From: Nitrospirota bacterium
GTDB taxonomy: Bacteria; Nitrospirota; Nitrospiria; Nitrospirales; Nitrospiraceae
Direction: 5' to 3'
Length of the DNA stretch: 64,000 nucleotides
Assembly: GCA_963701855.1 (NCBI GenBank)
Contig: CAVPBK010000009.1
Span: 416,001-480,000, forward strand
In this document: piece after piece, positions 20,150 to 43,167 of the stretch
Layout: every line of letters begins with the position of its first letter
Position numbering within the stretch: position 1 is the stretch's first letter
Notes under the pieces: model-generated
The model's input: the letters and a program-made list of their open reading frames with translations, nothing else
The model's database searches: none
What the model was told of the DNA's origin: nothing
Translations under genes and position numbers: made by a program

Positions 20150-20239
20150 GGGTCCTCCTCTCTTTGCAGGCACGAGGCGAGAGGCTATGGGTTATCCTTC
20201 TCTGTCCCTGGCCTCCAGCCTCTGACCTTTTACCTTCTC

Positions 20240-21832
20240 TTACAAATCATTCCCCGCATAGGACAGATTAAAGCTTTTGTTGATGAGCGGGAAGTCCGGA
20301 ATGATATTTCCGAGCACGGTCTGTTGGATCGCAGGCCAATTCGCGAACGAGGGGTCACGGACTTTACAGCGATGAATGGTCCCGTTCTCTCCCGCCATCA
20401 CCATGTACAGAATTTCACCACGCCAGCCTTCGACGGCTGACAAGGCCCATTCACGAGCTTGTGCCCTGCGACTGGATTCGACGGCGACAGGCCCCTGCGG
20501 AATCTTCAAACGAATCTCTCTGACTAGCCGCATGGACTCATGGATCTCATCCATGCGAACCCGCATCCGCGCCCGCACATCTCCATAGCGATAGTTCACC
20601 ACCTTGACGGGAAGCTCATCGTAGGCTGCAAACGGTCGATCGCGACGGAGGTCTTGATCAAGGCCCGACGCCCGTCCGACGACTCCCACTACCGCATGAT
20701 CCCAGGCCGTGCGTTCCGTCAGGACACCGGTGGTCTCCAGCCGGTCTGTTAGGGAGGCGTTGTGGGTGATGATCAATTCCAGCTCCGAGAAGTCCTTTTC
20801 GATCCGGTCCATTTCAGCAACAATCATGGTCAATTGTGCCGCTGTGAGATCGATTGCGACTCCACCAACCCGGTTGACTCCACGAAGAAATCGTGAGCCT
20901 GTCAGCTTGTCGTTGAGCTGCATGACCTGCTCTTTCATCCGGCCACAATGGGCATGGGGTAGTGCGTAGGCTGTATCGTTACAGATCGCGCCCACGTCGC
21001 CAATATGATTGTGGAGTCGCTCCAGTTCAAGAAACAGGCTCCGTAGATATCGTCCACGGCGTGACACCTCTAAATGGAGCAGCGCTTCGACCGCCTGGCA
21101 GTAAGCAAGACTATGGCCGACCGTCGTATCGCCGGATACTCGTTCGGCTAATGGAACCGCTGCGGTCAATGTTTGCTGCTCGAACAGCTTCTCGACTCCG
21201 CGATGTGTCCAGAAATGATGCAGCTCAAGTTGCATGATGGGTTCACCAGCCACGGAAAATCGAAAATGGCCCGGCTCGATGATACCGGCGTGGATTGGGC
21301 CCACCGGTACTTCAAACACTCCTTCCCCTTCAATGCGGCGGAAATGGTGTTCGCCTTGCTGACGACCCAGGACGCGGTTCCAAGGGAAATCCTTCTTGAG
21401 GGGGTGTGTCCCTTTTGGCCAGTGTTCGTGCCGAATCAGGCGTCGCAAGTCCGGATGTCCCTGCGGAATCATTCCAAACATGTCGCGAATCTCTCGCTCG
21501 TACCACTTTGCGGCATGAATGTGCGGCGTGATGGAGGGGAACAGCCGATCTCCCTCCGCGAGCTCAGTGGACAACACCACCCAGCTTTGGGAAGCCCCCA
21601 GGGTGAACAGATAGTGCAATCCACAGGCTTCGCGAATAGGACGATTGTCGACAGCCCATAAGAGTGTCAACCGGCCATGCAAGCTCGGTTGGGTATGGAG
21701 GTGATGGGTGATCGCCGGCAAGAGATCCTTGGGGACCAGAAAATGAGAGAACTCTCCCTTCGCTGCCTCATCCTGCACGATAAGCGGGAAAGCGGCCTTA
21801 AGTTCTTTGTCATAGATCCTCGTTTCTGCCAT
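20240..21832 (-). CDS. hyfG: Hyf/Ehr large subunit (NuoCD/HycE-like) without NiFe ligands
   Basis: WYEREIRDMFG, GPIHAGIIEPGHF, HRGVEK, ELERLHNH, DFPLINKSFNLSYAGNDL; start MAETR. Confidence 0.88.
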   Translation of the reverse strand: MAETRIYDKELKAAFPLIVQDEAAKGEFSHFLVPKDLLPAITHHLHTQPSLHGRLTLLWAVDNRPIREACGLHYLFTLGASQSWVVLSTELAEGDRLFPSITPHIHAAKWYEREIRDMFGMIPQGHPDLRRLIRHEHWPKGTHPLKKDFPWNRVLGRQQGEHHFRRIEGEGVFEVPVGPIHAGIIEPGHFRFSVAGEPIMQLELHHFWTHRGVEKLFEQQTLTAAVPLAERVSGDTTVGHSLAYCQAVEALLHLEVSRRGRYLRSLFLELERLHNHIGDVGAICNDTAYALPHAHCGRMKEQVMQLNDKLTGSRFLRGVNRVGGVAIDLTAAQLTMIVAEMDRIEKDFSELELIITHNASLTDRLETTGVLTERTAWDHAVVGVVGRASGLDQDLRRDRPFAAYDELPVKVVNYRYGDVRARMRVRMDEIHESMRLVREIRLKIPQGPVAVESSRRAQAREWALSAVEGWRGEILYMVMAGENGTIHRCKVRDPSFANWPAIQQTVLGNIIPDFPLINKSFNLSYAGNDL

Positions 21833-21846
21833 AGCACTCGTCCCTC

Positions 21847-23403
21847 CTAATGAAGCAAGAGTATTTTGGTCGCCTGTTCCAGCAGTTGCCGTAAGAACTG
21901 AGGGATGAAGAAACCAAATCCCACCAGCGCCGCGGCGAAAACAATCATAGGTAGGTGACCTAACGTCAAGCTTTCTCCTCGAACGATACCTTCTGGGGGG
22001 ATCCCCCAGACCATGCCGGTGATGCGATAGAGCAAGCCGCTGGACGCTACAATCGCACAAAGCAGAAACAGCCCGGTGAGGCCCAGGCTGCTAAACTGAC
22101 CCGACGAGGCAAGAGCCACCATGCCATTGCTATTAGTCAACCATTGTCCCGGAGCCCCTTCCGCAGACAGGGCCAAGACCACTTGCATTTCGCTGACAAA
22201 TGACACGAAAGGGGGAAGGGCTGACAAGGCCAGCCCCGCAATCATCAATGCCATGGCCGTCCAGGGCTGCGCGATAGCCAGCCCCTGCACCTGACCTATC
22301 TCCACCGTGTGAAAGCGACGATGAATGTCGCCCGCGGCAAAAAACGCCATCGATTTGGCAAAGGCATGGTTCAGCAGATGCAACAGCCCGCCGAAAGTAC
22401 CCAGCGGTCCTCCAACCCCGAATCCGATCATGGCGATCCCCATATGCTCGATACTGGAGTAGGCGAACAGCCGTTTATAGTTGTGCTGGATAAGGATGAA
22501 AAACGCTGCCGTGACAAACGAGGCAAACCCGAGCAATGTCAGCAACCCACCGGTGAAGGCAGGCGAAAGGGCGTGGTCGACAATCATCCTCATGCGGAGG
22601 ATCGCATAGACCGCCACAATTTCGAGGACACCCGCGAGCATGGCCACCACCGGCGCCGGCGCCTCAGTGTAAGCATCTGGCAGCCAGCTGTGCATGGGCA
22701 CGAGCCCCACTTTGGTGCCATAGCCCACCAAAATAAAGATGAAGGCCAACTTCAGCACATGCGGATTCAACCGGTCGGCTACGGGCAGTAACTGCGTCAC
22801 GTTCAAGGCCTCGCTGGCATCACCCAGCACATGCAGCGATGAATAATAGGTAAGCACCACGCCGAAGAGTGCAAGAGAAATCCCGACCGAACACAAGATG
22901 AGATACTTCCACCCGGCCTCCAAGGATTCTCGTCGTCGCCAGAAGGCAATCAGGAAAGTCGTGGTGAGCGTCGTCGCCTCGATGGCTACCCATTGCACTC
23001 CGACACTGTTGGCAATGGTCGCAATCACCATCGCCAGCAAGAACATGTGAAAGAGAAAAAAGAACACGTTGAGTCGTCCGGGCGCGATCACGCCTCGCGC
23101 GACCTGCTCATCCATATAGGAACGCATGTAAAGCGAACAGGCCAGTCCGACTGCCCCGATGATGAAGAGGATGAAGGCCGACAAGGCGTCGAGATAGACT
23201 AACTGTCCCAAAGCCGTGAATGGACCGTCTGTCAGCACAGTCCGAGTAATCATGATTTCTGAGGCCACGAGCAGGCTTATACTCGTGAGGTTGATCGCAT
23301 GGAGCAGTGCGGACCGATGAATGATCAAGCTCAGCCCCCCCGCGAGGAGCGGGGCGATCAACAAAACAACCACTTCGATCATTGTCATGAACCCTTCACT
23401 CAT
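21847..23403 (-). CDS. hyfF: Hyf/Ehr antiporter-like membrane subunit F
   Basis: WVAIEATT, EAGWKY, GYGTKVGLVPMHSWLPDAY, KRLFAYSSIEHMG. Confidence 0.88.
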   Translation of the reverse strand: MSEGFMTMIEVVVLLIAPLLAGGLSLIIHRSALLHAINLTSISLLVASEIMITRTVLTDGPFTALGQLVYLDALSAFILFIIGAVGLACSLYMRSYMDEQVARGVIAPGRLNVFFFLFHMFLLAMVIATIANSVGVQWVAIEATTLTTTFLIAFWRRRESLEAGWKYLILCSVGISLALFGVVLTYYSSLHVLGDASEALNVTQLLPVADRLNPHVLKLAFIFILVGYGTKVGLVPMHSWLPDAYTEAPAPVVAMLAGVLEIVAVYAILRMRMIVDHALSPAFTGGLLTLLGFASFVTAAFFILIQHNYKRLFAYSSIEHMGIAMIGFGVGGPLGTFGGLLHLLNHAFAKSMAFFAAGDIHRRFHTVEIGQVQGLAIAQPWTAMALMIAGLALSALPPFVSFVSEMQVVLALSAEGAPGQWLTNSNGMVALASSGQFSSLGLTGLFLLCAIVASSGLLYRITGMVWGIPPEGIVRGESLTLGHLPMIVFAAALVGFGFFIPQFLRQLLEQATKILLLH

Positions 23404-24065
23404 TCCTTCAACACGGTGAGGTGGCTTGTATCCACGCTGTCGAACGCGTCTTGTAAGCGATTCGTATAGATCCCCGCGATCAACACCGCGATGAGCACGT
23501 CGAAGAACACCCCCAGTTCGACGATCAAGGGCATCCCGTAGGTGGCGGCCGTAGCCCCCAAGAACAAGCCGTTTTCCATGACCAGAAAGCCCACCAGCTG
23601 CGACACAGCCTTTTGTCTCGCAATCATCGTGAACAAGCCGATGAGCACGATCGCGAAGGCGATGGCCAGAGAATCACGGGTGAGCAGAAAACCAAGCGGA
23701 AGAATGGGTTGCGTAATAAAGAAGGCCAGCATGACGAGGGCGCCGCAGATCAGCAAGCCGGCCGGTACGTTGATGTTCATGACCAATTCTCGCTTGACGT
23801 TGAGACGTTCAATGACCTTTTTCAAGACCCGCGGGATGATGATCACTTTAATCAGGCAGGTCAGCCCAGCCGCAATGTAGATATGGTGGTTCCCAGTCAG
23901 AAACGCCACCAGGGCTGCCGTTAAGACGAGAAAGGCCGACTGCAGTGCAAACAAGTCGACACAGGCGGAGAGCCGCCGCTGCGCCACGATGGCGAAGCAG
24001 GTTAACAGGAGTAACGCCGAGCACAAGTCGACGAGTTGCGATCCAATATGAGAAGAAATCTGCAT
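23400..24065 (-). CDS. hyfE: Hyf/Ehr membrane subunit E
   Basis: GFLVMENG, GMPLIVELGVFFD. Confidence 0.88.
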   Translation of the reverse strand: MQISSHIGSQLVDLCSALLLLTCFAIVAQRRLSACVDLFALQSAFLVLTAALVAFLTGNHHIYIAAGLTCLIKVIIIPRVLKKVIERLNVKRELVMNINVPAGLLICGALVMLAFFITQPILPLGFLLTRDSLAIAFAIVLIGLFTMIARQKAVSQLVGFLVMENGLFLGATAATYGMPLIVELGVFFDVLIAVLIAGIYTNRLQDAFDSVDTSHLTVLKE

Positions 24066-24069
24066 CTGT

Positions 24070-25020
24070 TCAGCTCCGAAGAATATAAAAGAACAGCAGT
24101 CCGAGTAACGCCAGGATAAAGGCGACGCCCAGGAGTTCCGTCACGCGGAACAACCGCAATTTTGCGAACATAGACTCCAGGATCCCGATCAACACCGCAA
24201 GCCCTGAGACCTTCAATAGGTAAGCTAATACCCCGATCCCCATCGCGGTGGGCGCCAGCGTAGTCGCAATTCCCCAGGGTGCGAAGACGTTGGCGATCAG
24301 AGAGAGAAACACGGCCAACTTCAGGCCGGCTGCCCATTCGATTAGAGCGAGATAGCGACCCGAGTATTCCAGGACCATCGCCTCATGGATCATTGTCAGT
24401 TCAAGATGCGTCGCTGGATTATCGACCGGTACCCGCCCAGTTTCAGCCAGCGCCACGATTAAGAGAGCTGCCAATGCCATCAGATACGGCGATGGGTCCG
24501 TCGCGATCCCTTCCAACAGTGCGGTCTTATGGACAATGGTGCTCAGGTTGGTCGATCCCTTGGTCAACGCAATCGCAAAGATAGAGAGGATCATGGCTGG
24601 TTCGGTCAGGGAGGCAACGATGGCCTCGCGGCTGCTTCCCATCCCACCGAAGGCTGAACCGGCATCAAGGCCGGCCAACATCAGGAAAAATGTCCCCAGC
24701 GCCAGCAAATACACAACCGCAATAATGTTGCCGACAAAATCGAGCGGCGTAATAGACACAAAGATTGGGAGCAACAGTCCGGCGGCTAGCGTAGAAGCAA
24801 ACACAATGTATGGTGTCGCGGTGAAGATCCACGAGGTCGTGGTGGAGACGACTGGTTGTTTACGGAAGAGCTTGGCCAGGTCCGCATAGGGCTGAAAGAC
24901 ACTGGCGCCCTGCCGTAATTGCAAACGCGCCTTGACCTTCCTGATCAGTCCCACAAGGAACGGTGAGACCGTCAGCAAGACAATCGTTTGAGCAACAACG
25001 AGAATAATGGCTTGCAACAT
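24070..25020 (-). CDS. hyfC: Hyf/Ehr NuoH-like membrane subunit C
   Basis: RKVKARLQ.RQG, GMGSSRE, DNPATHLELTMIHEAMVLEYSG. Confidence 0.88.
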   Translation of the reverse strand: MLQAIILVVAQTIVLLTVSPFLVGLIRKVKARLQLRQGASVFQPYADLAKLFRKQPVVSTTTSWIFTATPYIVFASTLAAGLLLPIFVSITPLDFVGNIIAVVYLLALGTFFLMLAGLDAGSAFGGMGSSREAIVASLTEPAMILSIFAIALTKGSTNLSTIVHKTALLEGIATDPSPYLMALAALLIVALAETGRVPVDNPATHLELTMIHEAMVLEYSGRYLALIEWAAGLKLAVFLSLIANVFAPWGIATTLAPTAMGIGVLAYLLKVSGLAVLIGILESMFAKLRLFRVTELLGVAFILALLGLLFFYILRS

Positions 25021-25024
25021 CCGG

Positions 25025-27052
25025 TTACACCGCGAATAACAACAGGGCGATGAGTGTGACGAAGATATACGCCAAGTACAGGTGCAGACTTCCCCCCTGA
25101 ATGACTCTTAGCCGATCGGCCATGCCGATGAAGCATGCGACCACGGGATCGTAGAGATATTTCTGGAAGACCGGCTCAATATGGAATTCGAAGTGCCGAC
25201 GTTTGGCGAAGTACCGCGACTCTTCAAGCAACTCCGTCTCCAACTTCACCGTCGGCTGATAAATCGCGGCGAAGACTCGTTTGATCGGCTGAACAAAGCC
25301 AGTCGCGGTGTACTCCATTCGGGGCGTGAGGTTGATCCCGCAGCCCCAGGTCTTGTAATAGCGCTGTTTCACAAGACCACCGAATGCCGCTACGAGCCCA
25401 AGCCCGAGCATCGACAGCGCCACCAGCAGCAGAGCCAAGGCCGGCGTTGAGAGGCTGGAGAATTCCACATTCACCGGGGCCAGCGCCCAGCCATCCAGCG
25501 ACAGCACTTTTCCCTCGATCGACAGACCGGCAAATGGCGTGACCACACGGTCTAACATCGGAACGACGACCATGGGTGCAAGGCCGAGCAACACACAGAC
25601 CACTGCCAGCAGGCCCATCGCGATACGCATGGTAATTGGCACTTCCTCTGCCTGTCGCGCATGGGAACTCCGTGGGAGGGCTAAAAAAGAGACTCCGAAT
25701 GCCTTGGCGAAGCAGGTCAGTGCCAACACGCTGGTCAGGGCCAGCATTGCCGCAGCAAGCGGAAGCATGAATTTCAGCAAGACCGCTGGGAGGTGAAAAC
25801 TAAGGAAGAGACTTTGAAAGACCAGCCACTCGCTGACGAATCCGTTGGTGGGAGGCAAGGCAGAAATCGACACGGCTCCGATCAAAAAGAAGGCCCCGGT
25901 CCAAGGCATGCGTCGGAGCAGGCCACCATACTCCTCCATGTTGCGCGTGTGGGTGGCATAGAGCAGCGAGCCGGCGCCTAAGAACAGCAGCGCCTTGAAC
26001 ATGGCATGGTTGATCGTATGATAGAGCCCGGCCAGCAACCCCAAGGCGGCAAATTCTGTGAGGCCGTAGGTCTGAAAGATCATCCCGGCACCGATGCCCA
26101 ACAGGATGATGCCGATGTTCTCCACGCTGTGGTACGCGAGCAGACTTTTCAGATCATGCTCCATCAGCGCATACATCACGCCCAGCAAGGCTGACACCGC
26201 TCCGATAACCAGCACGATAAATCCCCACCACCAAGGGAATTGGCCCCCGAGGAAATCGAAGTACACTCGCACGAGCGCGTAGATGGCGGTTTTGATCATC
26301 ACGCCCGACATGAGGGCTGAAATATGCGACGGCGCCGAGGGGTGCGCGTAGGGCAGCCAGACGTGGAGCGGCACAATGCCTGCTTTGGTGCCGAACCCGA
26401 TCAGGGCCATCAGAAAAGCCAGGGTTCTCATCCCTTCGGGCAAAGGCTGCGCCGGATGCCGGAAGGCCTCGAACGAGAACGACCCACCTGCGTGGAAGAA
26501 GATCAAAAAGGCTAGGATGATAAACGCCGTTCCGAGATGTGTCATGACGAAGTAGAAAAACCCTGCATAACGCACCTCCGCCTTCTCGTGTTCCGTCACT
26601 ACGAGGAAATAGGACAGCAATGACATCAGTTCCCACACGATCAGGAAGAAGAACCCGTTGTCGGCAATGACCACGAGTGTCATTGAGAGAAGAAATCCGT
26701 TAAATAGCGCCCCAAGCGCTGCGATCGAGGCACGCCCATAAAATTTGGTTACGTAGCCGATCGCATAGATCGAAGCGGCCAAGCCAGCCACCGAGATGGT
26801 CAATACGAATAACGACGCTAAGGGATCGAGTCGGATTGCGAAGCTCAGAAAAGGAATGGTGGATTGTACTGAAGCGGTCCAGGGTTCCGGTGCGAAGAGG
26901 CCGGTCACTCCGAGCAAGATGCCTGCTCCACTGGCCAGACCGGCGGACCCATGCGCGAGGATGTTTTGTACTGCTGGCTTGGTGGGAAAGCACAGAGGGA
27001 GAAGCAGTCCGCCTATGTAACTTGCGAAAACTAGAAGAAACAGATTCTGCAT
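25025..27052 (-). CDS. hyfB: Hyf/Ehr antiporter-like membrane subunit B
   Basis: WELMS, KAGIVPLHVWLPYAHP, LLAYHSVENIG, WGCG...MEYTA. Confidence 0.9.
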   Translation of the reverse strand: MQNLFLLVFASYIGGLLLPLCFPTKPAVQNILAHGSAGLASGAGILLGVTGLFAPEPWTASVQSTIPFLSFAIRLDPLASLFVLTISVAGLAASIYAIGYVTKFYGRASIAALGALFNGFLLSMTLVVIADNGFFFLIVWELMSLLSYFLVVTEHEKAEVRYAGFFYFVMTHLGTAFIILAFLIFFHAGGSFSFEAFRHPAQPLPEGMRTLAFLMALIGFGTKAGIVPLHVWLPYAHPSAPSHISALMSGVMIKTAIYALVRVYFDFLGGQFPWWWGFIVLVIGAVSALLGVMYALMEHDLKSLLAYHSVENIGIILLGIGAGMIFQTYGLTEFAALGLLAGLYHTINHAMFKALLFLGAGSLLYATHTRNMEEYGGLLRRMPWTGAFFLIGAVSISALPPTNGFVSEWLVFQSLFLSFHLPAVLLKFMLPLAAAMLALTSVLALTCFAKAFGVSFLALPRSSHARQAEEVPITMRIAMGLLAVVCVLLGLAPMVVVPMLDRVVTPFAGLSIEGKVLSLDGWALAPVNVEFSSLSTPALALLLVALSMLGLGLVAAFGGLVKQRYYKTWGCGINLTPRMEYTATGFVQPIKRVFAAIYQPTVKLETELLEESRYFAKRRHFEFHIEPVFQKYLYDPVVACFIGMADRLRVIQGGSLHLYLAYIFVTLIALLLFAV

Positions 27053-31667: not shown

Positions 31668-32733
31668 CTTGGTTTCAAACTTTTAACGCAACGAGGTGAT
31701 GAATGACCTCGCTAGGTTTCTGCCAGTGTAGCACGGCACGGGGACGGTCATTCAGCTCTCGCTGGACCCGCGTAATTTCCCGAGTCGAGACCTTGTTGCA
31801 CTCCGTCCCTTTCGGAAAGTACTGGCGGAGAAGGCCATTGGTGTTTGCATTCGTGCCTCGTTCCCACGGAGCACCGGGATGCGCGAAGTAGATGGTCATT
31901 CCGGTATCAATTGTGAACTGTTTGTGTTCGCTCAGCTCCTTGCCTTGATCATAGGTCAGGGTCTTCGTGATCTCCCGAGGCAACGATCTGAGTTCTTTCG
32001 CATAGGCTTTCCGCACCAATGTCGCGTCTTTCGCTTTGAGCGGGACAAGAATGGTATCGCGCGTCGTGCGCTCCACCAAGGTGCCGAGCGCAGTGCGCTG
32101 ATGCTTGCCCAGGATGAGGTCGCCCTCCCAGTGGCCGGGAATGGCGCGGTCAGCTACTTCAGGAGGTCGTTCTTCGATCTAGAGCCTCGCCACTATTTTG
32201 CCGCGTGTTTCTTCGTGGTTCCTACTCTTCCGTTTTCTTCGGTAGGCGCGCGCTTGCCGTAACGCCTTTATGAGCGTGGCGTTCAGCGACCCGCGAGGAA
32301 GCACGTAGATAGAGCGGTAGATGGCCTCGTGTGAGATGCGCATGGTCCTATCATTAGGATACTCTGTGGCGATGCGCTTGACGATCTCACGAGGGGACCA
32401 GCGCTTCCGCAATTTCTCCATGACGTAGACTCGCAAGCGATCGTCGCGCGTCAACCGACGCTTGCCCTGGTTGCGGGAGGAGGCACGTGCGTTCGCGCGG
32501 TTCCCAGCCGAGAAGGCGCGATACCCGCTCTTCCCGCTGTTGTGCTGGACTTCGCGGGCGACGGTGCTCGGCGCCCGACCCAACCGCCGTACCATGGCCG
32601 AGAGACTTGCTCCCTGCGCAAGCCCTCGGCTGACTTCCTCGCGTTCAGCTGCTGAAAGCCGATGGTATGGTGTTGTGGGAGGCATACGGATACATCGTAC
32701 TCATATCCGTTGCGTTAAATGTCTGACTCCAAG
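31668..32733 (-). mobile_element. IS30-family element, inactive
   Basis: Imperfect terminal IRs CTTGGTTTCAAACTTTTAACGCAAC (31668-31692) and 32709-32733; transposase 31675-32685 has HTH, GHWEGD, TYDQG, an in-frame TAG at 32179, and NENTN changed to NANTN. Confidence 0.9.
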
Positions 32734-33816: not shown

Positions 33817-35064
33817 CTAGAAGAAGGCCATGCTGGCATACGTGACCGTCGAGTTGTACTGGTCGGTGATCCCGCGGTCGTAGCGTAACACCTGCCCACT
33901 CTCCGCCTCGATCAGCCGTAGCAACGAATAGATGGGTGAGAAACCGGAGATCCGGCGCTGGTCCTGCTCTTTCCTGATGTAGTTGGCGAACTCTTCAGGC
34001 TGTCGCTCCTCCACCGGCTTCAGCATTTCCAGGTCGAACTGCATGCAGCGATGAAAGGAGAAGTCCGTCGGAGGGGCCTTGTCCCCGTAGCGCATACCCA
34101 GATGCGCCAACTCTCCCGCTGCAATCACACAGTAGTCCCTGCCCGATTGCATGAGGGCCGCTCGAAGTCCTGACAAAAACTGGTCGACCGAATGGCGAAC
34201 AGTCGGATCTCCCAGGCTCGACGCGGAGAAGGCACTCAAGATCGGAACGATGGTAAAGGACTTCTTGCTCCCCACGATGTCCTGAAGAAACGGGAGCTGA
34301 AATTCCACGGCCTGCTCCGACTGATGGCAGAGATCGTCCTCGAAGAACGTTGGGAGGCTGGCCTTGAGCTGACTCAGAATCGGTTGATCGGCAGTGACGA
34401 CCCCGAGAGGCGTTTCAAAATCCTTATCCGTCACGGCAAACACATGATCCAATCCGGCAGAGGCTGTGCCGATGATGACGAACAGATCCGGCTGTTCCGC
34501 ATCTTGCAGCTCTTTATAGGCCCAGGCATAGACCGGCCCTGCTTGCTTCAGATCATAGGTCGGCGCGACGAGGCCTTTAATTTTTTTCCCTGCATGTTCT
34601 GACGGTTTGAAGTCCGGCCCTTCTTTCGATGTAAAAAATCCATCAATCTGTTTTTTCAGTTTCGTTCCGTCTGCTTCGTAGCCCCGCCCGGCAAACGCCG
34701 CGCGGCGCAGCGGGGTCTGCCGATAGGCGTCCCGCGCCATCCGGCGAGCGTCCTCAGCACGCTGACCTTCCAAGAATAACTTTTCATTCAGGTCGGAAAC
34801 TAGCTGATCCATCTTGCTGGGAACGAGGAATTCACCGAATCGTTTGAGATACAATGCTCCGATTTCCGCCAGCGAATGCTCGCCGTCGAAATGCTGAATG
34901 ATGAAAAAATAGTTGAGCGGCAGCACGAGCTTTTCCTTGCTCAGTCCCGTGGGATCCCATAGAACCATGTACTGCTCTTCACCTTCTTTGATCGGCGAGA
35001 ATTGTAGATTACGAAGAGCGGGGCACTGTTTGGGATCGTTAGCGGTGCCGGTCGTAGTAGTCAT
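33817..35064 (-). CDS. MEMO1/AmmeMemoRadiSam protein B-like, degenerate metal site
   Basis: AFAGRGY, FETPLG, VEFQLPFL, LAHLG.RYGD, VTYASM. Confidence 0.8.
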   Translation of the reverse strand: MTTTTGTANDPKQCPALRNLQFSPIKEGEEQYMVLWDPTGLSKEKLVLPLNYFFIIQHFDGEHSLAEIGALYLKRFGEFLVPSKMDQLVSDLNEKLFLEGQRAEDARRMARDAYRQTPLRRAAFAGRGYEADGTKLKKQIDGFFTSKEGPDFKPSEHAGKKIKGLVAPTYDLKQAGPVYAWAYKELQDAEQPDLFVIIGTASAGLDHVFAVTDKDFETPLGVVTADQPILSQLKASLPTFFEDDLCHQSEQAVEFQLPFLQDIVGSKKSFTIVPILSAFSASSLGDPTVRHSVDQFLSGLRAALMQSGRDYCVIAAGELAHLGMRYGDKAPPTDFSFHRCMQFDLEMLKPVEERQPEEFANYIRKEQDQRRISGFSPIYSLLRLIEAESGQVLRYDRGITDQYNSTVTYASMAFF

Positions 35065-35148
35065 GACGCTCCTTCTTGGACCGCCATTGTAGCCAAGGAA
35101 TTACGCTTGCTGCAACCGCTGATCTGGTTCATTTGGAGAACACTCCTG

Positions 35149-35272
35149 CAGGATGCTCAAAAAGGCCGTTCAGCAAGGCCGCAGCGAGTGAGGGGCCGAG
35201 GCGTACCCTCTGAGGTACGTTGAGGGTCTGAACGATGCGAGAACAATGCTGGCGGACTTTTTCAGCATCCTG
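35149..35272 (-). repeat. Family A palindromic element (CAGGATGCTxAAAA...TTTTxAGCATCCTG)
   Basis: Terminal IRs; copies at 48765-48888, 55907-56028, 62299-62455. Confidence 0.85.
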
Positions 35273-36025
35273 CTACTCTTCTTTGGGCTGCTTGCTGCTA
35301 GATCGGCGAGCCATCACTACCAACATGAGGATGGTTAACCCTCCGAGCCAGAGGCTCGGCCTGCCATAGGAGGGGTCGGTGAACTCGATGAGGTCGGTCA
35401 ATCGCCCGATCAAGAGCGACATGCGAGCCATTACTGTATAGCCAAAGGCTGCACCGAACGCGATCATCAGGAACATGATGCCCGTGCGGGCTACGACCTT
35501 GCCTGGCCCAGTATGTTCGACGGAGAAAAAGAAGTAGAACAGCACCGAGCTGACGCCGACCAGGATGATAATGATGTTCAGGCTGCTGGACGGATTCAGG
35601 AGATTCCAGGTAAAGGTGACACCTTCTCCCGGTACCAGCGTCAATAGCGGGCGGACCGTATCCTCGATCTGTTTCAAGATAAAGGACGAGATCGTCCGTG
35701 GAATAGCGAGCCCCGATCCTACTCCCACGATAAAAGCAAACGCGTAGCGCGAGATCCAAGCGGCTTTGGGGACATAGCGCGTGAGCATGAGCGTCCCGAT
35801 GGCGACTGGAACCAACAACGTCCACTCCCCGTTCTCGACGATCGGCTTCCAGATTAGCTGCACGACCACCGTGTCATAGGTTTTGATGATCGTATAGCCG
35901 ACCGATACGCCAACGTAGAGATTCTCCGCCAGCTTAAAGAGCGGGTTGTCCTTATAGAGGAACGTGAAGATGAAGAGAGTCAACCCCGTCGCCACCCACG
36001 CCCCGACGATCAATTCAAACGCCAT
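35273..36025 (-). CDS. Conserved hypothetical multi-TM protein (GlmL-associated operon)
   Basis: FTFLYKDNPLFKLAENLYVG, FLMIAFGAAFGYTVMARMSLLIGR. Confidence 0.8.
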   Translation of the reverse strand: MAFELIVGAWVATGLTLFIFTFLYKDNPLFKLAENLYVGVSVGYTIIKTYDTVVVQLIWKPIVENGEWTLLVPVAIGTLMLTRYVPKAAWISRYAFAFIVGVGSGLAIPRTISSFILKQIEDTVRPLLTLVPGEGVTFTWNLLNPSSSLNIIIILVGVSSVLFYFFFSVEHTGPGKVVARTGIMFLMIAFGAAFGYTVMARMSLLIGRLTDLIEFTDPSYGRPSLWLGGLTILMLVVMARRSSSKQPKEE

Positions 36026-36031
36026 CGCTCG

Positions 36032-36877
36032 TTATGCCCCCGCCTGGCCCTGCTGTCGGGCTCTGTTGCGCGATGAGAAATAGAACAGGTTACACATGAT
36101 GACCAGCACAATAATGGCGAGATGCGTAGCCGACTGCGCATCCATGCCGGCGACGGCCTTGCCCTTCTGTCCGATAAGAATTTCATATTCTGCCGCACCC
36201 CGCAGGCCCCCGATCAGGCCATTGATCTGCCCACTCCGCAACAACGGATAGAGCCCCGGCGCCATGACGCCCGTACAGCCGCCGCCGAGCTCGAACTTGT
36301 ATTTATCCTTACCGAAGACATACCAAGCTTCCACACCGGGATTGCCAGCGCCCAGGCTGACGACATAGTTCACATCGCGCAGATTCGCGACACCGTGCAG
36401 TACTGGCAAGCCTTTCGTAGGTTTGCCATTGTAGTCGGCTGGGAACGCCCCATAGAGGTCTTGCCCCATGTTGATAATGACGGCGGTCCCACCTGGGCTC
36501 CAGCCGAGGAACACATAATCCTTTCCGCTTTCTTTGCCCATCTCGCGGGCGACTTGCGTGACGACCTGGTCGGCCATTCCTGTGCCGGAGACCCAGAGCG
36601 TCATCGCGATCACGCGGAGGTTCTTTCTGAAGGCATGACGCAGCAATGAAATCGATTGAGGATGCAACTCGGGCTTCGACGCCGGATCGAAGTCCAGCGA
36701 GAGCAGAAACACAGATCCCTCAGGGAGCGACTCGATATGGTCGTAGACCCCATGAACCTCCGGAGAAATCTTGATCGGCAATCCCACCGGGTAGAGCAGC
36801 GGCAAGAGCGTGCAGATGCCGATCACCAGGAAGATGATCCGCCGGTCGATCTTCAGCATGCGTTCAGCGAAGGTCAT
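36032..36877 (-). CDS. Conserved membrane-anchored protein (GlmL-associated operon)
   Basis: N- and C-terminal TMs around an alpha/beta domain; GLRGAAEYE, GMDAQS. Confidence 0.8.
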   Translation of the reverse strand: MTFAERMLKIDRRIIFLVIGICTLLPLLYPVGLPIKISPEVHGVYDHIESLPEGSVFLLSLDFDPASKPELHPQSISLLRHAFRKNLRVIAMTLWVSGTGMADQVVTQVAREMGKESGKDYVFLGWSPGGTAVIINMGQDLYGAFPADYNGKPTKGLPVLHGVANLRDVNYVVSLGAGNPGVEAWYVFGKDKYKFELGGGCTGVMAPGLYPLLRSGQINGLIGGLRGAAEYEILIGQKGKAVAGMDAQSATHLAIIVLVIMCNLFYFSSRNRARQQGQAGA

Positions 36878-36956
36878 CGTGAGACCGTTGCTCGTGAATC
36901 GTTAACCATTAATCGACTTACTTTTTCGTTTAACGAATAACGTTGAACGTATAACG

Positions 36957-37607
36957 TCATTCCTTTCCGCCTCCAAGATACGACCGTTCCATGCCGAAGA
37001 TGATCTTGATGGAGAGCGCGACAGTTCCAAGGCTGACGCCGATCAGGATCGCACGCCGCACCGACGCATTCAGCACGTTCAAGATCCACTGAGAGAGGTC
37101 GCCGCTGAGCGGGATCAAATATTCTCCGAGCGGGACGCGGCCCATCATGACAATCACCGCCGCAATGAGCAGCACCGCCGCCTCGCGGCTCCGCGCGCGG
37201 AACGACCGATAGGCTGCCGAGGCGATGAAGAACGCGAGGATGGCGAACATCGTCCCTTGCAGCGGGACCATCATGAAGTTATAGAACCACCCGAAGGCGG
37301 TCATGGTGCCGTCGACGGCTTCCTTGCCGTTCGACCAGAAACCGACCGCTATGGTGCCCAGCATGCTGACATAGAGGACAAAACTATAGCCCCAACCCGC
37401 TTCTTTGCGCCGGATCTTGGCGGCATGGACGTGGAATAGGCTGCTGACGCCCAGCACCAGCGCGAACCCCCCGATGATCTGGAGCCACTTCGTGACGGAG
37501 GTCAGCATCTGCTCCGAAGCCGGATGCGGCACATAATATTGCGCCGCCATCGCCAGCCCGGCGATGAGCGTAATCAGGAGCGGAACCTGTCGGCGCAGGA
37601 AGATCAT
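36957..37607 (-). CDS. Conserved multi-TM protein (GlmL-associated operon)
   Basis: MIFLRRQVPL; ATGA overlap with upstream stop; TMFAILAFFIASAAYRSFR. Confidence 0.8.
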   Translation of the reverse strand: MIFLRRQVPLLITLIAGLAMAAQYYVPHPASEQMLTSVTKWLQIIGGFALVLGVSSLFHVHAAKIRRKEAGWGYSFVLYVSMLGTIAVGFWSNGKEAVDGTMTAFGWFYNFMMVPLQGTMFAILAFFIASAAYRSFRARSREAAVLLIAAVIVMMGRVPLGEYLIPLSGDLSQWILNVLNASVRRAILIGVSLGTVALSIKIIFGMERSYLGGGKE

Positions 37608-38911
37608 TTCACATCCCGGAAAAAATCCAGAAATAATTTCGGCCACTGCGCGTCGAGAATCACCCCGAGAGTGGCCAGTATGGTCCCGATGCCAAGCACA
37701 CCGAGGATCAGCGCTTTGCCGATATCTTGCCCGCGCAGCGTGCCGACCTGAACCGGTTCTCTGGAGAGATAGGCGCTGGCGGCGTACAACTCCTCGCCGA
37801 TCAAGGTGTAGTCGCAAGTCGTCACAAAGAACGGAAGCTGGTGATCGGAGTCAGTCCCGGCAATCTGGATCGCGCCGGTGCTCGCGCCCGTTTCTGTCAA
37901 CAGCAACGCCTCGGCGAAATAATGCCCCATAAAGAAGTTCGCTGCGGGTTTTTTGCGCAACATGATGCCGTCCACCGCTGCGGTATAGCTGAATTGATCC
38001 GACGTAATAAAAAAATTCGAGTCGTCTTTATAGAGATCGGGTTTTCCGGCTTCCAGATACGCCTGTTTGGTAATTTCCTGGCAGACAGCCATGGTAATGG
38101 GATCGCGGTGGGGCACAAGCAAATCGGTTTCATAGGCTGCGGTGCGTTTGGCCACGCGCCCGAGAATAACCGCCGCAGCAATGGTGGAAGGGTCGCTCAT
38201 GTCGTGGGCGCCGGTTAGGTAGAGAATCGGTTTGCCCAGCTCCGTCGCGCGGCCGATGGCCTCATCCACAGCATCGAGCCCGGGTATGCGCCGGAGGAAG
38301 ATCTCCCGTTTTCTGGCTGTACTAATGGCATAGAACACGATGCCGCCGAACAGGAGCGCCAACAGAAGATTGTTCATCTGATTCCAGTTGATCCAGTTCG
38401 GTTGCGGTGTGGCCTGAACCGGTGTGGCGATGACACGATCGTCGTTCAGCACGGCAGCCACGGTGATGCTGTACGCATTCCCGTTTTTGAGCTCGACTCC
38501 CCTTCCATTCTTCAGCGTGAACTGATGCTGCTCTCCAGTCGTCGGCCTCGTCCACCAAGGCCATTTCGATTCTCGGACATAGCGCTGGTTCGCAGGGAAC
38601 TCCGCCACGACTTTCATCGCAGCCGGATCTTGCACAGTGGTTCCTTCGCTGAGTAAGACTTGATATTTGGCCACGGCACTATCGTAAGGAGCGGGCGACC
38701 AGAGCAGGGTCAGACTGCCGCCGCCATCACTGGGGGTGTCGAACGCCCGAACGTCTTGAGGTGGCGCGAGAGACATCTTCGTCTGGGCGTCGGTTTGGGC
38801 AAGCACCGGCGAAACAGACAGGCAAAGAGCAGCGACTTGCAGCAGAATGCCCGCGCATACTGAACGAGCATTCTCACGTTTCACGTTTAATGTTTCACCT
38901 CTCACGGGCAC
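37604..38911 (-). CDS. Fibronectin-III-like + DUF6754-like membrane protein
   Basis: APPQDVRAFDTPSDGGGSLTLLW; RRIPGLDAVDEAIGRATELG; QLPFFVTTCDYTLIGEELYAASAYLS. Confidence 0.75.
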   Translation of the reverse strand: MPVRGETLNVKRENARSVCAGILLQVAALCLSVSPVLAQTDAQTKMSLAPPQDVRAFDTPSDGGGSLTLLWSPAPYDSAVAKYQVLLSEGTTVQDPAAMKVVAEFPANQRYVRESKWPWWTRPTTGEQHQFTLKNGRGVELKNGNAYSITVAAVLNDDRVIATPVQATPQPNWINWNQMNNLLLALLFGGIVFYAISTARKREIFLRRIPGLDAVDEAIGRATELGKPILYLTGAHDMSDPSTIAAAVILGRVAKRTAAYETDLLVPHRDPITMAVCQEITKQAYLEAGKPDLYKDDSNFFITSDQFSYTAAVDGIMLRKKPAANFFMGHYFAEALLLTETGASTGAIQIAGTDSDHQLPFFVTTCDYTLIGEELYAASAYLSREPVQVGTLRGQDIGKALILGVLGIGTILATLGVILDAQWPKLFLDFFRDVK

Positions 38912-40044
38912 TAGGCTCCTTCAATCAATTCAATATTCGTCCGCGGAATGACGGCCTTGCTGCCGTCGGCAAAGCGAACTTCCATCACACGCACGTCACT
39001 CTCGGTCGGAATCTTCTGGAGATCGGACGGCAAACTTGCAACTTCACCGATCTTGCCGAACAACGGGTCTCGAATGATGCGAACCTGGTCGCCGATCCTG
39101 ATCCCTTCCCTCTGCGGCACGGTGGCCGCATTGTGAGCGCCCGCTGCGTCTGCCTGTTTGGGAATGATGATCTCCGGACGAATGACGCCGGCACGAATTT
39201 GCGTGGCGCCTGAAATAGACGCCTGTTGTCCTGCATGGGCTGAAAGCAGCGCGAACGTTTTGCCGGCCATGGGGATGGAGCCGAACCCTTCGGTGAGAAT
39301 CAGGGTAAAACCGACCTGTTCCGTGCCCGTGATGGCCACGCCAAGGTCGTAGCCAAGCAGCGCTCGCAAATCCTTATCGTGAATGCCGCCAATCACCAAA
39401 CCTGCAACCCCCACTTCCTTCGCGCGAGCCAGCGCGTCGGAAGAGATGAAGGAACCTCCCACGACGACCTTGCCTTTCATGTCCGCGGTGAGGTGACGAG
39501 GCGTCAGCGCTTCGTCCGGTGACGTCACCGCGATCACAATCTCGCCCCTGGTTTCACCGCCGATGCCAAAGATGCCCTGCACCAGACTGCAATCGGTTTC
39601 GACCACGACACCTTGCTGCGGAATCACCTCGACGATTCGCCCATCGACATAGCCCAGCAACTCCAACACGCGAGGCGGCTCCCGCAACAGAACCTGCCCC
39701 GTAACTGCCGACAGGGATTCCACGACGCCGGTGATCGGCGAACGTACTTCCGTTTTGAGCCACTTGATGAGTGGTTTGTTCTCGGCCAGGATCTCGTCCT
39801 TCTGCACCGAATCGCCGGCCTTTTTGATCAAATACTCGTGAATCTCATCCGGTGCTACGCCCAACTGATTGGCAAGATTCAGGGGATAGACCTTCCCTGG
39901 CAATTCCGCACGAGCCACCGCCTGACTCGCGCGCACAGCCTCTCCGGTTGCGACCAGCAAGATACCAGGCAGCGACAACATCCGCCGTCGCCGGATCGTT
40001 GTGTGCTCTGTAACGGTTAAGCCTGGGGTATAGGAATGAGCCAT
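38911..40044 (-). CDS. Conserved soluble protein with barrel-sandwich hybrid-like and KOW-like segments
   Basis: GDSVQKDEILA...RSPITGVV; GIRIGDQVRIIRDPLFGKIGEV. Confidence 0.75.
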   Translation of the reverse strand: MAHSYTPGLTVTEHTTIRRRRMLSLPGILLVATGEAVRASQAVARAELPGKVYPLNLANQLGVAPDEIHEYLIKKAGDSVQKDEILAENKPLIKWLKTEVRSPITGVVESLSAVTGQVLLREPPRVLELLGYVDGRIVEVIPQQGVVVETDCSLVQGIFGIGGETRGEIVIAVTSPDEALTPRHLTADMKGKVVVGGSFISSDALARAKEVGVAGLVIGGIHDKDLRALLGYDLGVAITGTEQVGFTLILTEGFGSIPMAGKTFALLSAHAGQQASISGATQIRAGVIRPEIIIPKQADAAGAHNAATVPQREGIRIGDQVRIIRDPLFGKIGEVASLPSDLQKIPTESDVRVMEVRFADGSKAVIPRTNIELIEGA

Positions 40045-40053
40045 CGTTAAAAT

Positions 40054-40128
40054 AGGTTAAGGTCGAGGTTTAGGTGAACAATACGCACTGCTCTCGGTCC
40101 TTCTTAGCCTCAGCCTTAACCTCAACCT
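40054..40128. repeat. Family D hexamer hairpin; supplies the TGA stop of the GlmL-like gene
   Basis: AGGTTAAGGTCGAGGTTTAGG...CTTAGCCTCAGCCTTAACCTCAACCT. Confidence 0.7.
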
Positions 40129-41960
40129 GCTTTCGGGTAAAGATCCACGGCCTGATACCATTTCGTGAGCGCTGCGACTCTGACCGCGTGATCGGTCGAT
40201 AACTGCAACGGACGCCCGCGCCCATCCAGCAAGAGTCCCACCACACCGCCTTGGACTTCTCGCGTGACCGCGACTCCCGCGCCTGCCCCAAGATTCACTT
40301 GTTTCACCGGTTGAATCGTGATCGAGGCCTTCTGATCGCCGGCCAGGGGAACCAACCGCAGGTCGCCGAACGAAAGTGTCCCCTTGTCCACTCGACCATC
40401 TGGAAAGGTGATGGCATAGTCTGCGCACCGTTCCCCATCCTTCCCCTGCCCGATCGGCGCGACACAGGTCCCTAGATAGACCATGCAATCGCGGACGAAG
40501 ACATCGGTCGCCGCCTTCTCATTGATAGTCGAGAGCACGCCGAGGTGCGGCATCATGAAAATGCTGTCCACCGAGAGCCTCGTCACCCCAAGCGGTTCAT
40601 AGGCATCTACCATCATCAACATCGATTGCACGCGGCGCGGCGCATGGGACAGGATTCCGCCGCTTCCCACGATCAAATCCAGCTTGAGCATATCGATCAG
40701 CGTCTTACCGGACTGCTGCTGTTCGAACACATCAGAAATCGTGCGTTCTTGTTGTATGCCCTTGAGGGCTGTCGCAAGGGACTTGTGATGGATTAAGGCG
40801 AGCCGGAGCGCCTCGCGGGCAATTGCATGTTCGATCTGCAGCTCGTCCAGCGTCTGCGGAATCGTCGTCGGACGGACCATCTTGTTCTTGATCCGGTTGC
40901 GGAGCGTCTGTTCGTCGATCGTGAAGGGCACCCAGCGCATGATATTGGCGAGCCCTGCTTCGGCCAGTACATTGGAGATACTGTACGACATCCCGAGGTT
41001 TGCGCTGACAGTTCGATTGAAGAGTCCCTCAAAGACCGAGAATACGTCCGTGGTCGCGCCGCCGATATCCACCCCGATCAAGTTCAGGTGCTCCCGCTTG
41101 GCAATCGTTTCCATGATGACACCGACAGCTGCCGGCGTCGGCATGATCGGCGCGCCGGCCATCTCGATCAGTTTCTTGTAGCCCGGCGCCTGCTGCATGA
41201 CATGTTCGAGAAAGAGGTCGTGAATCTTGTTCCGTGCCGGTGCGAGGTTCTCCCGTTCCAACACCGGACGAATGTTGTCAGTCAGCACAAGCGCGGCTTT
41301 CTCGCCCAGGATCTTCTTTACTTGCGGCTGCGCGTCTTTGTTGCCTGCGTAAATTAACGGGAGCTTGTAGGTCGCCCCAAACCTGGGCCGTGGCTCCGCT
41401 GCCGAAATGTACTCCGCCATCTCGACCACATGGGTCACCGCCCCCCCGTCCGTCCCGCCGGACATCAAGATCATGTCCGGCCGCATTGTCCTGATACGTT
41501 CGATCTTTTCATGCGGCAAACGGCCGTCGTTCGACGCAAGCACGTCGATGACAATGGCGCCGGCCCCCAGCGCGGCCCGTTGTGCGCTCTCCCCCGTCAT
41601 GTTCTGCACTACGCCTGTGACCATCATCTGCAACCCGCCGCCCGCACTGCTGGTGGAGATGTAGATATCGACTCCAGTCTTCGCATCGCGACAGGGCGTG
41701 ATGATCTTATCGCCATCGAGGATTTTCCGGCCGGAGAGTTCTTCAATTTCCGCAATCGCGTTCAGCACCCCGCGCGTCACATCTTCGAATGGCGCTTCCA
41801 CCGTCGTCGGCGCTTCACCTCGATAGGTTTGCCGGTATTCGTCGCCGACCTTCTCGATCAGAATGGCTTTGGTCGTGGTGCTGCCACAGTCGGTGGCTAC
41901 GATAACGTTGAGGGGGTGGGTGATCACCGGCTTGATAGCTGCTGGACTCGGCACAGTCAT
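40122..41960 (-). CDS. GlmL/MutL (glutamate mutase L)-family ASKHA ATPase
   Basis: ATDCGSTTTKA, TSSAGGGL, SGGTDGG, IMPTP, VDIGGATTDVFS, RTVSANLGMSYS, GSGGIL. Confidence 0.88.
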   Translation of the reverse strand: MTVPSPAAIKPVITHPLNVIVATDCGSTTTKAILIEKVGDEYRQTYRGEAPTTVEAPFEDVTRGVLNAIAEIEELSGRKILDGDKIITPCRDAKTGVDIYISTSSAGGGLQMMVTGVVQNMTGESAQRAALGAGAIVIDVLASNDGRLPHEKIERIRTMRPDMILMSGGTDGGAVTHVVEMAEYISAAEPRPRFGATYKLPLIYAGNKDAQPQVKKILGEKAALVLTDNIRPVLERENLAPARNKIHDLFLEHVMQQAPGYKKLIEMAGAPIMPTPAAVGVIMETIAKREHLNLIGVDIGGATTDVFSVFEGLFNRTVSANLGMSYSISNVLAEAGLANIMRWVPFTIDEQTLRNRIKNKMVRPTTIPQTLDELQIEHAIAREALRLALIHHKSLATALKGIQQERTISDVFEQQQSGKTLIDMLKLDLIVGSGGILSHAPRRVQSMLMMVDAYEPLGVTRLSVDSIFMMPHLGVLSTINEKAATDVFVRDCMVYLGTCVAPIGQGKDGERCADYAITFPDGRVDKGTLSFGDLRLVPLAGDQKASITIQPVKQVNLGAGAGVAVTREVQGGVVGLLLDGRGRPLQLSTDHAVRVAALTKWYQAVDLYPKAG

Positions 41961-42349
41961 TGAGCGGAGGCTCCTTGAGGAGCCTGGGGAGAAGCTTTGG
42001 GTGCAGACTTCGTTTCAATGATGGCAATGAGACGGGAGATCGTATCGCGTCGTTCGAGCAACCGGGCCACTTGCTCGACTTCTTTCGCCTGAAAGGCCCA
42101 TTCAACGATGGGGGTCAGGAAATACAGCGCCTGGCTTCCGAGAAAGTTCATGGGACCGAGAGATTCCAAGAACACCGTTGCAGGAGCAGCCATGCCTCGT
42201 TTCACTACCGCATCGGCTACCCGTTCAAGCAGAGTATGGTCTTCGGTCGTAAGCACCTCGGCTCCTGATTTAGTCGAAAAGGCATGGGAAATCTCCACGC
42301 GGACCTTGTCCCATGTTTCCGCCACTGATGCCTTGGAGAAAGAAGTCAT
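41957..42349 (-). CDS. Conserved hypothetical protein, first gene of the operon
   Basis: VVKRGMAAPATVFLESLGPMNFLGSQ; ATGA overlap with the GlmL-like gene. Confidence 0.75.
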   Translation of the reverse strand: MTSFSKASVAETWDKVRVEISHAFSTKSGAEVLTTEDHTLLERVADAVVKRGMAAPATVFLESLGPMNFLGSQALYFLTPIVEWAFQAKEVEQVARLLERRDTISRLIAIIETKSAPKASPQAPQGASAQ

Positions 42350-42594
42350 AACTGTCTGGAAAGGCAGTCAAAGCCGACTAGCGAGCGGCATTATATTGAG
42401 GGGTCAGAGGAGAGTCAATAAATGCGCCGCTAGTTGTGCGAGACAGACGAGACTATTGAAACAGATTGATCTGGCTGGCTTGGCTCTTCTGGTTGTTCTG
42501 GTTCAAACAATCTTACATATGTGTTGCCGAGGTAACGGATCTCGTGCAAGAAAATGAATGCAACCCTGTCTCATTTTTTCAGCCAAGGCCTAAT

Positions 42595-43167
42595 TTATTG
42601 TGATGGTTGCTTCTTCAAATTAAAGTACAGCGTCCTCATCTCAGCTCCGCCAACGAAATTATGAGCCTTCCCCACCAGGGAAAGTTTCCCTCCGCCAAAC
42701 ATCCAATTTTCCTTACATCCCGTCTTGCCGAACTCCACGGCATAGACAAGTACGGCTGTCACGGGCACTTTGTTCTCCTGGTCTGGAGTAGGCTTAGTTT
42801 CCTGCGTTTCAAGGAGGAAATTTTTGTCCTCGACCTGGCCGCCATGTTCGCAAACGTAATGGACATTGCCGCTCAGGGTGATATCTTTCACGCCGCTGTT
42901 GAGATCTTCCACGGCCAGCGTCACCACGTATTGATCGCTGGACGGCACGTCAACAGACTGGCCATCTTTCGCGATCACTCTTGTCTCCTTCGTCTGCATG
43001 TTATACGTCTGCCAGGCCATAGTCGGGGGAGACGCGTCAGAACCGGGAATCAAAACCCTGGGTATCGGCTGGGGACAGCCGACCAAGGAAAGGCCCAAGA
43101 CGACAATGAGCCCAGGAAGCCCGAGCCGAACCAGATGCACATGACATGTCTTACCGTCCATCCTCAC
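42595..43167 (-). CDS. Putative lipoprotein
   Basis: Hydrophobic leader ending in lipobox LVGC. Confidence 0.65.
   Translation of the reverse strand: MRMDGKTCHVHLVRLGLPGLIVVLGLSLVGCPQPIPRVLIPGSDASPPTMAWQTYNMQTKETRVIAKDGQSVDVPSSDQYVVTLAVEDLNSGVKDITLSGNVHYVCEHGGQVEDKNFLLETQETKPTPDQENKVPVTAVLVYAVEFGKTGCKENWMFGGGKLSLVGKAHNFVGGAEMRTLYFNLKKQPSQ

Follow-up and report, generated by a model that had tools for sequence, protein, structure and literature searches.

A conserved operon of Nitrospiraceae combines a GlmL-type ATPase with a repeatable membrane quartet and possibly encodes a translocator of an undescribed type

The window analysed here is a stretch of 64,000 nucleotides (contig CAVPBK010000009.1, positions 416,001 to 480,000) from a Nitrospiraceae-type genome that is 97% complete (assembly GCA_963701855.1), and coordinates below are positions within this window. 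Seven co-oriented genes, g1 to g7, which an earlier note had described from the letters of the window, are borne out as intact minus-strand open reading frames, each present as a single copy in its own genome. The first, g1 (41957..42349; 130 amino acids, aa), encodes a small soluble or amphipathic helical protein, regarded as accessory, which has no Pfam or NCBIfam match. g2 (40122..41960; 612 aa) encodes a long GlmL/MutL-type ATPase of the ASKHA (actin/Hsp70) fold, and g3 (38911..40044; 377 aa) encodes its putative soluble partner, which comprises barrel-sandwich hybrid repeats, a glycine-rich conserved middle domain and a C-terminal KOW-like barrel. The other four are membrane proteins. g4 (37604..38911; 435 aa from the first GTG) is a DUF6754 protein with a signal peptide, an outer FnIII domain, a transmembrane (TM) helix, an inner six-stranded Rossmann-type domain and a second TM helix; g5 (36957..37607; 216 aa) is a six-helix protein with its N-terminus predicted inside; g6 (36032..36877; 281 aa) holds a Rossmann-type domain, predicted outside, between two TM helices; and g7 (35273..36025; 250 aa) is a six-helix protein with its N-terminus predicted outside and a seventh helix in Nitrospira.

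Two of the three overlapping junctions reported for these genes are ATGA overlaps (41957-41960 and 37604-37607). Whether there is a third, of one base at 38911, depends on which start codon g4 uses: a GTG further in, at 38884, is no less likely than the first, and several relatives lack the overlap (12 loci inspected among 80 family loci, these being the best 80 of 434 matches in a contig scan and all Nitrospirota-like). A near-consensus sigma-70 promoter (TTGACT-17-TATAAT; 42390..42418, minus strand; 11/12 consensus matches) lies 41 nt upstream of g1. Both hexamers are kept in all 54 family loci that hold the region, and none of 171 control windows inside g2 reaches even 10/12. Operon spacer lengths differ among relatives.

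The phylum survey covered 301 Nitrospirota genomes, of which 60 encode DUF6754 and 61 encode PF13941, the family of g2; these are the same 60 plus one contig-end fragment, and PF13941 is likewise missing from the one Nitrospiraceae member that has no DUF6754. Apart from the window's own genome, 58 of 59 sampled Nitrospiraceae genomes carry the system, which makes it near-universal there, and as the 60 carriers are kin, they count as about one gain rather than as 60 independent cases. Of the 50 Nitrospiraceae loci with room for all seven genes, 49 keep the full order, an arrangement far beyond chance. The earlier note's proposal was open to refutation by a lack of synteny of the membrane genes elsewhere, and synteny was found far outside Nitrospira, in 78 distant metagenome loci (the best of 600 matches ranked on a distant query, many of them short). 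Here, 49 g4 copies have 3 kb of sequence on their downstream side, and after 48 of them g5, g6 and g7 come next, forming a fixed quartet with g4. Two g4 copies occur in five of these loci and three in seven (12/78 with repeats), and none carries two copies of g2. g2, g3 and g1 are found in 18, 19 and 11 of the 78 loci, respectively, g1 directly before g2 in 10 of its 11, and g2-g3 may stand before, after or divergent from the quartets. All 103 long g3 homologues are g2-g3 fusions with g2 first, from sources named as Planctomycetota, Neomarinimicrobiota, Zixibacteria, Cloacimonetes, Delongbacteria, Fermentibacteria, Eisenbacteria and others, the taxonomy of distant carriers being taken from source names. 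The syntenic module first described as a seven-gene machine is real but is not one seven-subunit unit: the system consists of a putative g2-g3 motor, often fused, and a repeatable g4-g7 membrane quartet, and g1 accompanies it in only the 11 distant loci. The g4 family alone comprises 2144 representatives at 50% clustering. No matches were found in viral contigs (searched with the g4 alignment) or plasmids (searched with g3).

Other small genes accompany the system in some lineages. A protein without a family (cluster c11) precedes g1 in seven distant loci (L085, L098, L118, L127, L131, L133 and L138) and is possibly an eighth, accessory part. Exported or lipoprotein-like genes without a Pfam match lie between g2 and g3 or just before g4 (L094:6945-7754, L117:1593-2336, L124:1303-2052, L137:6084-6860), or upstream of g4 in L101, L108, L129 and L160; these are candidate ligand-binding partners.

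The g2 protein matches PF13941 over residues 20-491 and profile positions 1-449 of 450 (435.7 bits, cut-off 27, E 2e-130), and about 120 residues extend beyond this GlmL-type part at its C-terminus. It falls below all three NCBIfam cut-offs for GlmL/Or-4 proteins (NF040745, 240 vs 475; NF040744, 212 vs 600; TIGR01319, 171 vs 204). Both phosphate motifs are intact, as had been claimed (DCGSTTTK at 24-31 and DIGGATTD at 298-305), and their patterns are kept in 100/103 and 101/103 of the g2-g3 fusions, respectively; g2 identity among distant loci has a median of 68%. Compared with GlmL/MutL and Or-4 proteins, g2 shares the PF13941 part and both phosphate motifs but differs in the C-terminal extension, a fixed or fused g3, a membrane quartet and the lack of a mutase in its carriers. 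MutL/GlmL itself is a chaperone reactivating glutamate mutase, according to PMC4682846. Glutamate mutase E (GlmE, PF06368) was found in none of the 60 carrier genomes, in a search that did not include models of ornithine and lysine aminomutases; elsewhere in Nitrospirota, PF06368 has weak matches in 3 of the 301 genomes, none over the cut-off. The window's own genome encodes neither GlmE nor methylmalonyl-CoA mutase, dehydratases and other B12 enzymes lying outside that search, and it holds eight B12-binding-domain matches, only one of them short. The short one is presumably a radical S-adenosylmethionine-type fragment rather than GlmS, judging from its motifs. Weak B12-binding-domain matches occur in 3 of 21 g2 sequences (best E 0.09). 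Judged from gene content, the g2 system is unrelated to the vitamin-B12 enzyme implied by its database name, which agrees with the earlier view of an ATPase apart from glutamate mutase and would explain the 'glutamate mutase L' labels in mutase-less genomes. Pfam and NCBIfam profile searches with g1-g7 gave no match to an ATP-binding cassette (ABC) ATPase.

For g3, the hybrid-barrel and KOW-like character proposed earlier holds as weak barrel-sandwich and KOW matches in the window protein, and among 35 family members Biotin_lipoyl, RnfC_N and KOW are matched in 29, 24 and 16, respectively, at E<=1. No Pfam swivel match was found among the 35 members, and look-alikes in the Atlas belong only to unnamed or barrel-domain clusters, which include Chloroflexota and Fidelibacterota. 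The middle domain carries invariant glycine-rich motifs. No cysteine of g3 is conserved, and its only conserved histidine is H3 (67%), with none in the protein body or among invariant columns. Residues 88-99 (window ~39780-39750) form an extended hairpin of the hybrid barrel in which Lys90 is near-invariant and whose tip is aromatic (in relatives FFGLF-like); the hairpin region has no lipoyl or biotin motif, and it could touch the membrane or the quartet. A second g2-g3 fusion class (P0318, P0334, P0342-P0345 and P0355) covers only ~65% of g3, without the KOW end; seven carry an N-terminal XRE-type helix-turn-helix (HTH) and several a zinc ribbon, which hints at a regulatory branch.

The assignment of g4 as an FnIII plus DUF6754 protein is confirmed by its match to PF20539 (385 bits, cut-off 27, E 1e-115) and by its AlphaFold2 model (pLDDT 90), which shows a signal helix, an FnIII domain with Z ~10 to many FnIII domains, and a six-stranded alpha/beta domain between two TM helices. 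The model of g6 (pLDDT 95) likewise places a six-stranded alpha/beta domain between two TM helices. The Rossmann part of g4 aligns with Sir2 (Z 11.5, root-mean-square deviation (rmsd) 3.6, 143 residues), and g6 finds its best structural match in MT0777 (1kjn; Z 10.6, rmsd 3.6, 140 residues), to which g4 also aligns (Z 9.8). Over equivalent ranges, both share 1kjn, sirtuins (Z 11.5 and 8.8), 6lrf and 6zdz as neighbours, overall with Z 8-11.5, rmsd 3.3-3.9 and 7-13% identity. g6 further resembles the RCK domains of TrkA (Z 9.3) and KtrA (9.1) and transhydrogenase dIII (8.3), level with unrelated Rossmann proteins. The two domains also share an order of 15 elements, with correlated soluble helix lengths (rho 0.82, p 0.025, n 7), and the quartet, with about 16 helices in all, would consist of two halves in opposite orientation, which may share ancestry; internal-repeat tests by sequence were not significant. 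According to the published table, g5 has six TM helices in its Phobius column and g7 has seven. Invariant polar residues lie in or at the quartet helices, including R12, Q248, H252 and N263 in g6 and N27, E34, Q119, T197, R201 and R208 in g7. The window g5 has no family match, and TMD0_ABC matches in 20 of 78 g5 sequences (best E 2e-5) are weak and hydrophobic. No membrane gene matches a characterised transporter by sequence, the other finding that could have spoken against the earlier proposal. Sequence and profile searches of the PDB with g2, g3, g4, g5 and g6 gave a best E of 0.29. Foldseek found no clear match for g4 or g6, the g4 lists being dominated by FnIII so that its inner domain was covered only in part, and the Atlas search with g6 yielded no usable named match. 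A complex prediction for g4(172-432), g5, g7 and g6 scored 0.65, with partner-replaced controls at 0.00 and a g6-replaced control at 0.76, and was not used as evidence.

The outer parts of the quartet vary strongly. g4 relatives range from 322 to 1276 aa and have swapped ectodomains, from a single FnIII domain to propellers and longer arrays, and one relative carries an FG-GAP propeller inserted in loop 3-4 of g5. The 13 long g6 homologues comprise four g6-g7 fusions, six with long N-terminal extensions, two with a HEAT insert and one with a duplicated outer domain; 46 selected proteins were covered by the domain scan of relatives. A DxPxDxG-like motif opens the FnIII domain of the g4 ectodomain, from residue 61, in 83 of 150 representatives and is a possible metal or ligand site. 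In the g6 relatives P0381-P0386, one of them named Chloroflexota, the first helix is preceded by a zinc ribbon and by an acidic, proline-rich stretch of several hundred residues in which PDWL-like motifs recur.

Several features suggest that the g4 and g6 domains lie on opposite faces of the membrane. In g4, Lys/Arg are enriched after TM1 (4.4 vs 2.3), and the signal peptide and FnIII domain precede TM1, whereas in g6 they are enriched before TM1 and after TM2 (3.6 vs 1.4; 5.0 vs 1.7). The N-terminal extensions of g6 relatives bear zinc ribbons in 3/3 scanned, and all four g6-g7 fusions have one extra hydrophobic linker helix (peaks 1.4-2.0), as would be required to join a g6 C-terminus on the inside to a g7 N-terminus on the outside. 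Lys/Arg and hydropathy alternate in g5 in the opposite way to g7, pointing to an opposite sense of these two proteins in the membrane. The alignments retained 85 of 150 representatives (A1) and 66/80 (A3), 77/88 (A5) and 54/70 (A8) locus matches after partial or over-long reading frames were dropped. Conservation follows the predicted topology. The inner domain of g4 is conserved at 60-63%, compared with 27-31% for its ectodomain and 39% for the outer domain of g6; the inner loops of g5 reach 69, 62-69 and 31% and its outer loops 24-35%, and those of g7 reach 75-83, 50 and 53-65% inside and 21-32% outside, with one outer exception (57-64%). The same pattern appears among distant loci and among paralogues of one locus, and it fits a shared inner partner with a diversified outer specificity.

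N. moscoviensis carries the orthologues as NITMOv2_3303 to 3297, identified by mass and coordinates. In the data tabulated in PMC8407350, all seven genes are transcribed (55-256 reads per kilobase per million), g2, g3, g4 and g6 rank 638, 635, 972 and 1375 in a proteome of 2519 proteins, and g4 and g6 are detected in all five membrane digests. In PMC9381531, the intensity-based absolute quantification values of g2, g3, g4 and g6 lie within ~2-fold, with no significant change on nitrite depletion, and there is no listing for g1, g5 or g7. The values listed in PMC6606698 likewise show no significant change over three time points, and g2 carries the RefSeq label 'methylaspartate mutase' there. 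Expression in this relative is constitutive.

Taken as a whole, these data are best read, in our opinion at just short of an even chance, as describing a primary-active membrane translocator of an undescribed type, in which one ATPase motor drives interchangeable, pseudo-symmetric modules. Physical coupling of ATPase and quartet is suggested by their co-occurrence, operon structure, similar abundance and inner-face conservation, and inverted repeats in a membrane core are typically a feature of transporters or channels. The variable ectodomain of g4 and the outer domain of g6 would capture or select a ligand, which the g5/g7 core would pass across the membrane. The g2-g3 motor would dock on the conserved inner face, formed by the g4 domain and the inner loops, and one motor could serve several paralogous quartets. 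Its ATP cycle, in which g2 would hydrolyse ATP, may pry or reset the inner domain of g4 in the way that B12-enzyme reactivases pry subunits apart. Dehydratase reactivase, as portrayed in PMC7674605, combines an ASKHA-type ATPase with insert and swivelling domains and an ATP-driven subunit swap. In comparison with the diol/glycerol dehydratase reactivase, the likeness of g2 is that of an ASKHA-type ATPase, and the difference lies in its likely client, a membrane complex. Energy-coupling factor (ECF) and Mce transporters are organised alike, with one ATPase module and divergent membrane modules that keep a conserved inner face; however, their motors are ABC P-loop ATPases, and g2-g7 have no sequence match to these transporter families. 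The direction of translocation is probably inward, uptake being favoured over export because the outer face diversifies. In a fuller form, which we put forward more tentatively, the system would represent a class of primary-active transporter whose ATPase has the actin/Hsp70 fold and is either a descendant or an ancestor of B12-enzyme reactivases. Its membrane core would be pseudo-two-fold with a Rossmann domain on each side, a single motor would work with a set of quartets whose ectodomains can be exchanged, and the whole would be constitutive and belong to the core functions of Nitrospira and of many uncultured phyla.

A number of observations weigh against a translocator. Neighbouring genes vary by lineage and offer no recurring substrate clue; the lineage-bound ones we take to be lysine aminotransferase-like, amidophosphoribosyltransferase-like and Tol-Pal-like. 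One record (P0189) is a fusion with a solute-binding protein (TctC), but this was rejected as a substrate clue, being a truncated domain in a single record. Only the 18 of 78 distant loci contain g2 at all, and several have 10 kb upstream yet no g2. A common ancestry of g4 and g6 is without sequence support (hhalign probability ~1%; in-register element score, p 0.12), as is homology of g5 and g7, whose co-linear helix score does not exceed that of permutations, and the structural neighbours of g4 and g6 are generic Rossmann proteins, none of which stands clear and from which no function follows. For a chemolithoautotroph, a core operon that is always expressed is more in keeping with housekeeping than with the uptake of nutrients. 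A DNA-binding HTH is present on 7 of the 103 g2-g3 fusions, and Hydantoinase_A is matched in 20 of 21 g2 sequences. At the usual catalytic-acid position of actin-fold ATPases, g2 has a threonine (motif PTPAA), presumably as in hydantoinase-type phosphotransferases, and because of this replacement g2 may phosphorylate a substrate. At the level of protein, g1 and g7 of N. moscoviensis gave one peptide each and g5 none, all three below the two-peptide threshold in the tabulated proteome (PMC8407350).

A rival reading is an envelope-building enzyme or exporter, in which g2-g3 would activate a substrate with ATP, the inner Rossmann domain would take it over, the core would flip it and the outer Rossmann domain would transfer it to lipid, glycan or protein, with the ectodomains positioning the complex. 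We consider this unlikely on balance. It is consistent with the Hydantoinase_A matches, with the invariant motifs of the g3 middle domain, which look like half a site, with GT-B and other Rossmann enzymes among the fold neighbours, and with the core, single-copy and constitutive character of the operon in Nitrospiraceae, but no fold match rises above the generic neighbours, few polar residues are invariant in the g6 outer domain, and no lipid, glycan or cell-wall genes recur nearby. A second rival is a transmembrane sensor, whose ectodomain would bind a ligand, whose quartet would relay the signal and whose g2-g3 would act as a nucleotide switch with a KOW or HTH output. It is consistent with the receptor-like character of the ectodomains (FnIII, beta-propeller and FG-GAP), with the presence of several paralogous quartets beside one motor, with the KOW matches in g3 and with the HTH fusions. 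However, 16 helices with an apparent inverted repeat exceed the needs of a receptor, no kinase, response regulator or sigma factor recurs as a neighbour, the HTH is confined to a minority, and g2-g3 are as abundant as the membrane subunits; we regard a sensor as quite unlikely.

Conserved residues bear on a different possibility, a redox-driven ion pump or transmembrane electron wire resembling Rnf/Nqr. An RnfC_N/NQRA_N-like barrel-sandwich domain on the soluble g3 and transhydrogenase dIII among the g6 neighbours lend it some plausibility, and the oppositely oriented six-helix pair resembles RnfA/E and NqrD/E. No cysteine is conserved at >=60% in g3, g5 (85 sequences), g6 or g7 (67 sequences), and one is in g4; PF02508, the Rnf-Nqr family, has no match in the genome and is absent among the families listed for the g5/g7 alignments; and no iron-sulfur or flavin genes stand among the neighbours, the partner being an ATPase. 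Redox chains, together with a phosphorelay of the phosphotransferase-system type, are disfavoured because g3, g5, g6 and g7 lack conserved cysteines and the body of g3 lacks a conserved histidine, and an Rnf/Nqr-like device is very unlikely. Finally, the view that g2 reactivates a B12 enzyme like any other GlmL, the membrane genes being bystanders, can draw on the PF13941 match, the 'methylaspartate mutase' label and the weak B12-binding-domain matches, but it is largely refuted and scarcely credible: g2 scores below the GlmL cut-offs, its carriers are without GlmE, all long forms are fused to g3, and g2 adjoins the quartet in distant lineages.

The earlier statement that the module has no functional description stands, as none was found for DUF6754, PF20539, the locus tags or PF13941/TIGR01319 in a search that extended neither to subscription journals nor to bioRxiv supplements. 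The system is a real, widely distributed and expressed membrane machine that has apparently not been described, and no transporter driven by an ATPase of the ASKHA fold is known to us. For five of the seven proteins there is no family model, and Nitrospiraceae are nitrifiers of key importance in soil, water and treatment plants. Were one of the rival readings true, the operon would still encode a widespread envelope machine without a description.

Downstream of g7, a dispersed intergenic repeat (35137..35272) lies outside the machine and has 167 blastn matches in its own genome; we take it to be a small mobile or REP-like element. A similar sequence is found between g3 and g4 in loci L057 and L073. 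The next gene (33817..35064, minus strand) belongs to the Memo family (PF01875, E 2e-36) and comes after g7 in most family loci but in 0 of the 78 distant ones; it is a fixed downstream neighbour in Nitrospiraceae only, and on this ground it was rejected as a subunit, which it probably is not. Upstream of the promoter, a lipoprotein-like gene of 190 aa (42595-43167) has a paralogue of 80% identity on contig C5; among 80 related loci, just one has it beside the operon. Elsewhere in the window, two reading frames at 31675-32685 are presumably pieces of an IS30-type transposase, and a cluster at 19631-27052 appears from its sequence to encode membrane-bound hydrogenase-4-like subunits.

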